DNA of 912 bases, taken from the sequence record S81553.1, one strand, 5' to 3'. Position 1 is the first letter of the stretch. Every line of letters starts with the position of its first letter. Below, piece after piece: positions 1-912 of this stretch. Under the pieces are notes generated by a model. That model did not search any database. It had not been told where the DNA came from and worked only from the letters and a program-made list of their open reading frames with translations. Position numbers and translations under genes: made by a program. The stretch is from a phage.

Positions 1-30
1 GGGGGTAGGCCCCATAAGGGGCCTGCCTTC
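1..30 (+). promoter_or_regulatory. 5'-terminal stem-loop of an ssRNA phage genome (replication signal; its complement forms the 3' end of the minus strand)
   Basis: Seen in sequence: window starts GGGGG; positions 1-13 (GGGGGUAGGCCCC) pair with 18-30 (GGGGCCUGCCUUC) around an AUAA loop (14-17), giving 13 contiguous pairs including G-U wobbles at 3-28, 2-29 and 6-25. Established: the same architecture, G-run plus terminal hairpin, is found at the 5' end of Qbeta and MS2 genomes. Confidence 0.75.
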
Positions 31-41
31 AACGCACTACA

Positions 42-47
42 GAGGAG
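42..47 (+). promoter_or_regulatory. Shine-Dalgarno ribosome-binding site for the maturation gene
   Basis: GAGGAG at 42-47, 5 nt upstream of ATG at 53-55. Confidence 0.8.
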
Positions 48-52
48 AATCT

Positions 53-912
53 ATGCCAACCCTTCCGAGAGGACTTCGCTTCGGATCGAATGGCGAAATC
101 GTAAATGATTTCAACGCGCTCTGGTTTCCAGAGCGCGAAGCATTCGATCTCGAGCTCGGCTCCTACACACTCACTGGTTACGTAAGTAATCAGCCTGGCT
201 ATACGACGCGCATGCGTAATCCTCGCATGCATTGCGTTCGTACACCGCACAGAAGTACTGTACCTGTTAACCATTTTGGTTATAGGCCAGTTACGACTGT
301 TGAGTATGTTCCAAACGGAACTTTCATCCGCCTAGATGGGGATGTAAAGTTTTCCGGTGGATCGGTTAGTGGGTCGCTTAAGCTAAACAACTTCGTTGTT
401 AACTTAGCGTCACAGGGCGGCTTCGATTACCAGTCGGTAATCGGACCAAGGTTCTCGTCGCAATTCTCCGCGTTTAGTACCAAGTATGGTGCTTTGCTCG
501 GGGAAGGGAGAGAAACACTTAGTTATCTTCTCCTGCTGTTTCGCAGAATGCGTGAAGGGATCCGTGCCGTAAGGCGCGGTGATCTCAAGCGTCTCAGGAA
601 TCTGATACGTACATTCGAACCACGGTCCATTTCTGGCCGACGGCAACGAACGACGTTCTCAGAGACCTATCGCGATCGACTCGTCAACGACGGGTGGAAA
701 GACAGTAGTGCGAGTGACCTGTGGTTAGAGTTCCGATACGGACTGATGCCGTTGTTTTACGACATCAAGTCTGTAATGGAGGACTTCATGCGTATCCATA
801 AGAAGATCGCGAAATTACAGCGATTTTCAGCAGGACACGGTAAGCTTGTGACGGTTAAGGGTAGGTTCTTCCCTGACCCGCACTTCGCTATTGAGGTCAC
901 CGCGGTGTTACA
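53..912 (+). CDS. A2: Maturation protein A2 (pilus-binding/maturation protein, lysis effector in Qbeta-like phages); N-terminal 286 codons, truncated at the 3' window edge
   Basis: Seen in sequence: ATG at 53 with SD; frame 2 is open with no stop through codon 286 (ends 910; 911-912 are a partial codon). Translation MPTLPRGLRFGSNGEIVNDFNALWFPEREAFDLELGSYTLTGYVSNQPGYTTRMRNPRMHCVRTPHRSTVPVNHFGYRPVTTVEYVPNGTFIRLDGDVKFSGGSVSGSLKLNNFVVNLASQGGFDYQSVIGPRFSSQFSAFSTKYGALLGEGRETLSYLLLLFRRMREGIRAVRRGDLKRLRNLIRTFEPRSISGRRQRTTFSETYRDRLVNDGWKDSSASDLWLEFRYGLMPLFYDIKSVMEDFMRIHKKIAKLQRFSAGHGKLVTVKGRFFPDPHFAIEVTAVL. Established/recalled: Qbeta A2 begins MPKLPRGLRFGADNEILNDFQELWFPD and contains RTPHR, RPVTTV, FSAFNAKYG..GEG, LLLRRLREGYRAVKRGDL, LWLEFRYGLMPLFYDI and RFSVGHG in the same order. 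The MS2 A protein carries a related WLELQFGWLPLMSDI motif. Comparison is from memory, not a database search. Confidence 0.9.
   Translation, partial: MPTLPRGLRFGSNGEIVNDFNALWFPEREAFDLELGSYTLTGYVSNQPGYTTRMRNPRMHCVRTPHRSTVPVNHFGYRPVTTVEYVPNGTFIRLDGDVKFSGGSVSGSLKLNNFVVNLASQGGFDYQSVIGPRFSSQFSAFSTKYGALLGEGRETLSYLLLLFRRMREGIRAVRRGDLKRLRNLIRTFEPRSISGRRQRTTFSETYRDRLVNDGWKDSSASDLWLEFRYGLMPLFYDIKSVMEDFMRIHKKIAKLQRFSAGHGKLVTVKGRFFPDPHFAIEVTAVL

Follow-up and report, generated by a model that had tools for sequence, protein, structure and literature searches.

The question raised by this locus, a 912-nucleotide stretch of phage DNA that was analysed whole and is called the window here, is whether the protein that begins in it serves its phage both as maturation protein and as lysis effector, as A2 does in phage Qbeta, and whether it would lyse the host in the same manner, through MurA. 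The window was found to be nucleotides 1-912 of the Enterobacteria phage NL95 genome (AF059243.1; 912/912 nt, 100% identity). NL95 is a group IV allolevivirus, at present classified as Qubevirus faecium. All nucleotide runners-up were group IV phages, namely HB-P24 (86%), HB-P22 (80%) and BR1, SP and FI (~76-77%), and almost no DNA-level similarity to Qbeta could be detected. The window starts at genome nucleotide 1 with a 52-nt 5' UTR, after which the frame opened by the ATG at position 53 runs without a stop through the window end; it is missing from the list of open reading frames only for lack of a stop within the stretch. These 286 codons represent the 5' two thirds of the first cistron of a ~4.2 kb genome, in which the order is maturation - coat - A1 read-through - replicase. 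A sequence-only reading of the window had taken positions 53-912 for a divergent A2 homolog, which is borne out by the annotated CDS (53..1381), by the matches to Qbeta A2 chains and by Pfam family PF03863. Its further proposal of a combined maturation and lysis function agrees with the genus-wide literature and with GenBank, where the A protein is noted as 'minor coat protein; involved in particle maturation and bacterial lysis'. The dual role of A2 is therefore the existing annotation of a known genome and not a new prediction; as a discovery it is minor, being already annotated (AF059243.1), with maturation-protein lysis treated as a trait of the genus.

Table 1. Features of the window and of the NL95 genome. 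Positions are those of the window unless another record or genome is named, and regional identities refer to the A2 protein in Qbeta numbering.
Feature	Position	Strand	Size, sequence or identity	Basis
5'-terminal hairpin	1..30	+	13-bp stem, 4-nt loop	RNA fold, inverted repeat I4
Shine-Dalgarno-like AGGAG	43..47	+	5 nt 5' of A2 start codon	read from sequence
A2 CDS, codons 1-286 of 442	53..912	+	rest runs to genome nt 1381	annotated CDS, homology
NL95 counterpart of Qbeta aa 1-180 lytic fragment, aa 1-178	53..586	+		alignment; limit from PMC12856241
NL95 aa 29-118 (Qbeta aa 30-120), exposed beta-region	137..406	+		alignment; role from PMC12856241
Conserved island in variable beta-region, aa 63-87	239..313	+	RTPHRSTVPVNHFGYRPVTTVEYVP	A2 alignments
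Group-IV-specific basic insertion, aa 189-211	617..685	+	EPRSISGRRQRTTFSETYRDRLV	A2 alignments
Most conserved alpha-region segment in window, aa 212-268	686..856	+	with WK..SASDLWLEFRYGLMPLFYDI	Pfam, HMMER, invariant columns
A-protein CDS	AF059243.1 53..1381		442 codons	GenBank annotation
Coat protein CDS	AF059243.1 1402..1800			GenBank annotation
A1 read-through protein CDS	AF059243.1 1402..2394			GenBank annotation
Replicase CDS	AF059243.1 2414..4144			GenBank annotation
Alternative-frame ORF in replicase gene	NL95 3123-3260		45 aa, GTG start; hydrophobicity 2.30 over 19 residues, N-terminus
Alternative-frame ORF in replicase gene	NL95 3807-4028		73 aa; hydrophobic stretch
Replicase-start +1-frame ORFs	L003 2383-2727; L008 2380-2685; L006 2473-2817
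NL95 vs Qbeta, aa 1-29			65.5%	alignment of nine A2 proteins
NL95 vs Qbeta, aa 30-120			33.7%	alignment of nine A2 proteins
NL95 vs Qbeta, aa 121-180			53.3%	alignment of nine A2 proteins
NL95 vs Qbeta, aa 1-180			45.5%	alignment of nine A2 proteins
NL95 vs Qbeta, aa 181-420			48.5%	alignment of nine A2 proteins

Upstream of the gene, folding of nucleotides 1-75 gave a minimum free energy of -31.7 kcal/mol (z -2.84 vs shuffles), and the hairpin at the start of the 5' UTR is of the kind that terminates RNA phage genomes. An Rfam search of the window matched no family. Just 3' of the A2 start codon, a 12-nt complementarity was noticed between nucleotides 60-71 and 497-508 (CCCTTCCGAGAG / CTCGGGGAAGGG). 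A long-range pairing of these arms that would close the start site and so limit A2 translation was considered and rejected: the complementarity is kept in relatives without compensatory changes, and both arms code for conserved residues.

The 286-residue translation matched the Qbeta A2 structure chains (5VLZ/5VM7/7LHD, 5MNT) with an E value of ~2e-62, the match being split into two colinear blocks by residues absent from Qbeta; one of the matched entries, 5VM7, is the Qbeta A2-MurA complex. The window-encoded part also scored 103.3 bits against Pfam PF03863 (Phage_mat-A, cut-off 25) and was matched by PHROG 4286 along its full length. Its best PF03863 stretch, aa 212-268, is likewise the second HMMER domain against Qbeta A2 and contains runs of invariant columns. 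Identity to Qbeta is 45.8% for the window-encoded part (121/264 aligned residues, 26 gap columns) and 47% for full-length NL95 A2, which is ~73-75% identical to the SP protein. In a tblastn search of phage records, the full-length protein matched the Qbeta-group phages at ~45% and the MS2-type maturation proteins at ~25%, the latter over the C-terminal two thirds only. By these alignments, NL95 A2 is an orthologue of Qbeta A2 along its whole length.

Searching 5.8 billion clustered proteins led to 12 matching clusters, all of them PF03863, so that NL95-type A2 represents a very small family. This small number of homologue clusters would also account for the mediocre confidence of the AlphaFold model (moderate, with a mean pLDDT of 61.7 and a pTM of 0.49), which was built on P0001, a protein 90% identical to NL95 A2 in the window-encoded part and 89% over the full length. 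The top Foldseek match of the P0001 model was nevertheless 5mnt, the crystal structure of Qbeta A2 (E 1e-37, TM 0.63-0.66), and the maturation proteins of PhiCb5, MS2, PP7 and AP205 ranked far below it. The architecture predicted for NL95 A2 is thus that of 5MNT, with an N-terminal beta-region and an alpha-region. An Arg-Gly-Asp motif was observed at window positions 575-583 (A2 aa 175-177), where the alpha-region is predicted to be helical; its G176 and D177 do not vary within the A2 family. RGD motifs in allolevivirus A1/A2 proteins have been remarked on in a review.

Two observations concern sequences beyond the window. At NL95 nucleotides ~1105-1135, an extra C near nt 1110 and an extra CA near nt 1128-1129 were seen relative to HB-P24, HB-P22, SP and a metagenomic NL95-like genome (L011). 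The extra bases shift ~6-7 A2 codons, giving TRPALSVN and not I-GQLYRH at aa ~354-361, which no relative shares; this out-of-frame stretch is either a genuine frameshift with compensation or an error in the old sequence. In addition, the metagenomic contig NODE_539 of ENA ERZ781412 (L010, 4065 nt) has the Qubevirus order of maturation, coat, read-through domain and replicase, and its A2 is 38% identical to the N-terminal part of that of NL95. L010 and P0011, along with P0008 at an intermediate distance, point to Qubevirus-like lineages outside the two named species.

Where NL95 A2 departs from Qbeta was examined region by region in an alignment that comprised six group IV and three group III A2 proteins (Table 1). 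It had been claimed from the sequence that the protein differs from Qbeta at many positions in the N-terminal half. The many differences are real, with 45.8% identity in the window-encoded part, but the N-terminal half is not specially divergent (45.5% vs 48.5% for the remainder of the protein). Divergence sits mainly in Qbeta aa 30-120 and in the group-IV-specific insertion. For comparison, NL95 is 58-60% identical to SP or FI over the aa 30-120 segment, and Qbeta and MX1 are 48% identical there. No other parts of A2 evolve as fast as this segment (aa 29-118 in NL95) and the insertion. Pairwise dN/dS over aa 29-118 was 0.13-0.36, which points to purifying selection. Among all A2 regions, the ratio ranged from 0.04 to 0.84 where it was computable, synonymous sites being saturated in some comparisons; it was below 0.4 outside the insertion and highest within it. 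As judged from these ratios, every region for which one was obtained is under purifying selection, and both of the variable parts evolve fast yet under constraint.

The variable beta-region contains one conserved island, aa 63-87, with the consensus RTPHRxTVPxxxxGxRPVTTVxYxP. Residues T69, V70, G76, R78, P79, T81, V83 and P87 are invariant in 15/15 A2 sequences, which take in three divergent metagenomic lineages, and the island supplies 13 of the 30 NL95-Qbeta identities of the MurA-contact region. The model is of low confidence at residues 66-81, within the island. The island is a candidate for a shared MurA contact, a pilus contact or a structural core.

The basic insertion was found in all group IV A2 proteins. 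It is 22 aa long in NL95, and a further 9-aa extension brings it to 31 aa in SP and BR1; it is absent from Qbeta, FrMerlot, MX1 and M11 as well as from the metagenomic P0008, P0011 and P0012. Modelled with a pLDDT of less than 50, the insertion probably forms a flexible loop in the alpha-region; that it touches genomic RNA is a guess. Along with the insertion, group IV A2 proteins have a much higher net positive charge (+15 to +19) than those of group III (+6 to +11). The net charge of the beta-region, taken to stand in for a surface complementary to MurA, was -2 to +3 in both groups and hence uninformative.

Most contacts between Qbeta A2 and MurA lie in beta-region aa 30-120, and the shortest lytic N-terminal fragment of Qbeta A2 is aa 1-180 (both from PMC12856241, citing Cui et al. 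2017); MurA contacts were accordingly mapped onto NL95 at the level of this cited range. The whole counterpart of the lytic fragment is encoded within the window and is colinear with it, with 2 gap columns and 45.5% identity, and the putative MurA-binding surface combines an identity of 33.7% with the single conserved island. This region is the least conserved part of the protein, and the caution of the sequence-only reading about MurA binding is justified by its low identity to Qbeta. The complex of Qbeta A2 with MurA was solved at only ~6 Å, so that the exact MurA contact residues would be uncertain. No phage lysis protein other than A2 is known to target a soluble enzyme. The cloned SP maturation gene reportedly caused lysis and reproduced the lysis morphology. 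In the literature, Qbeta and SP are said to lack a dedicated lysis gene (PMC12856241), the alloleviviruses are described as lysing through their maturation protein (PMC6071253), and MurA-mediated lysis by this protein is ascribed to the whole genus Qubevirus (PMC13114773); all mechanistic work that is cited concerns Qbeta. According to its title, Priano et al. 1995 found three Qbeta and SP proteins to be interchangeable, and Nishihara 2002 compared lysis by GA with lysis by SP. The literature searched yielded no test of NL95 A2, or of any group IV A2, against MurA. The hosts recorded for the close relatives of NL95 are E. coli, as for Qbeta, so that both would face one and the same MurA, that of E. 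coli. The shift in host specificity that the sequence-only reading had raised is for this reason unlikely.

By orthology with Qbeta A2, NL95 A2 is very likely a maturation protein that binds pilus and RNA and is present in one copy per virion. This copy would bind the genomic RNA by its alpha-region, and the exposed beta-region would bind the F pilus; aa 29-118 probably lie near the pilus-binding site also. NL95 A2 is likely the lysis effector too. Following the Qbeta mechanism, A2 accumulated late in infection would use the outer face of its beta-region to bind the closed, UDP-GlcNAc-liganded E. coli MurA. Peptidoglycan synthesis would be blocked at its first committed step, and the cell would lyse on attempting division. 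It is reasonably probable that NL95 A2 lyses in this way, by binding liganded E. coli MurA via its beta-region. The low identity of the contact region, the basic insertion and the higher net charge of group IV proteins weigh against a MurA-based mechanism, as does a model of low confidence (pLDDT 61.7) that is uninformative on the interface.

Lysis of the host by a small unannotated protein in another frame, MS2-style, with A2 restricted to maturation, would be a different answer to the question. Embedded lysis genes are small and hard to detect. They arise de novo quickly (PMC7693330), and a cryptic +1-frame lysis ORF near the replicase start has been reported in Qbeta (Nishihara 2004, cited in PMC12856241), both of which speak for such a gene. 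Alternative-frame ORFs of nine Qubevirus genomes were scanned for hydrophobic segments, and the open intervals of NL95 were checked for stops in five other group IV genomes. Two NL95 ORFs within the replicase gene, 3123-3260 and 3807-4028, have hydrophobic stretches that would suit this function, but neither is preserved throughout group IV. In HB-P24, BR1, SP and FI, the counterpart of 3123-3260 carries 1-4 stops, and that of 3807-4028 carries 2-3 stops in 4/5 relatives; both ORFs, common only to the closest relatives, were rejected as lysis genes. Neither had a PHROG match, and the ribosome-binding site of the GTG at 3123 is weak. As a separate observation, the C-terminal 27-43 codons of 3807-4028 begin at a start codon and are free of stops in all five remaining group IV genomes. 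In the replicase-start +1 frame, ORFs of at least 100 codons were found in SP, BR1 and HB-P24. The same frame contains three stops in NL95 (~2460-2822), and stops also in HB-P22 and FI; it was rejected as an NL95 lysis gene, being broken by stops and having no start codon that gives at least 25 aa. No alternative-frame ORF with a hydrophobic segment stays open in 6/6 group IV genomes, and the NL95 intervals that do stay open in all six (nt 718-798, 1550-1651, 2261-2371, 2355-2456, 2896-2976, 3003-3113 and the 3' UTR) contain no hydrophobic stretch of membrane length. The lack of a conserved membrane-type ORF in the six group IV genomes fits with A2 being the lysis protein and, as far as negative evidence from sequence goes, sustains the earlier proposal of single-gene lysis. 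An embedded lysis gene in NL95 appears very improbable.

Alternatively, NL95 A2 could be both maturation and lysis protein and yet act on another host target, or on another surface of MurA, than Qbeta A2. A contact region that differs this much from Qbeta, and that is only 48% identical even within group III, would be compatible with such a change, as would the rapid evolution of the beta-region and of the insertion. The Young laboratory further suggests that the affinity of Qbeta for MurA was recently tuned, the original Qbeta isolate having been barely lytic (bioRxiv 10.1101/2023.10.16.562596). On the other hand, the host and hence MurA are the same, the fold is kept in the model, both the island and the N-terminus (aa 1-28, 65% identity) fall inside the lytic fragment, and MurA inhibition is regarded in the literature as genus-wide (PMC13114773). 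We regard a change of target or of MurA surface as quite improbable. It is also unlikely that group IV A2, with its rebuilt beta-region and its insertion, uses a different MurA binding mode or inhibits another step of cell-wall synthesis. If a different mode did exist, group IV A2 might escape the murA alleles that resist Qbeta A2, and the two Qubevirus species would constitute a natural pair in which the surface of a 'protein antibiotic' evolves on one scaffold and in one host. Should a group IV A2, with about a third of the Qbeta contact-region residues conserved, still inhibit E. coli MurA, the minimal conserved determinants of this type of lysis protein would be defined; should it not, a second target would be revealed. 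Taken as a whole, the data are probably best explained by a Qbeta-type A2 that acts in maturation and, through MurA, in lysis.

Among known systems, the A2 protein of Qbeta (group III, Qubevirus durum; PDB 5MNT, 5VLZ, 5VM7) is the closest point of reference outside group IV. It has the same first-gene position, belongs to PF03863 and is colinear with NL95 A2, with which it shares the N-terminus MPxLPRGLRFG and conserved motifs of the alpha-region. The two proteins differ in length (420 aa for Qbeta, 442 aa for NL95) and in net positive charge, which is higher in NL95, and only NL95 A2 has the 22-aa basic insertion, which follows the helix ending at aa 188. Lysis and MurA inhibition have been shown experimentally for Qbeta A2 only. 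The A2 proteins of SP, FI, HB-P24, HB-P22 and BR1 (Qubevirus faecium) come from the same species as NL95, are 75-88% identical to its A2 and share with it the group IV insertion and the gene order. The A protein of MS2 and GA is a distant homologue, of the same Pfam family and with the same pilus- and RNA-binding role; in contrast to NL95, in which A1 is present and no embedded lysis ORF is conserved, these phages have a dedicated embedded membrane lysis gene (L) and no A1.
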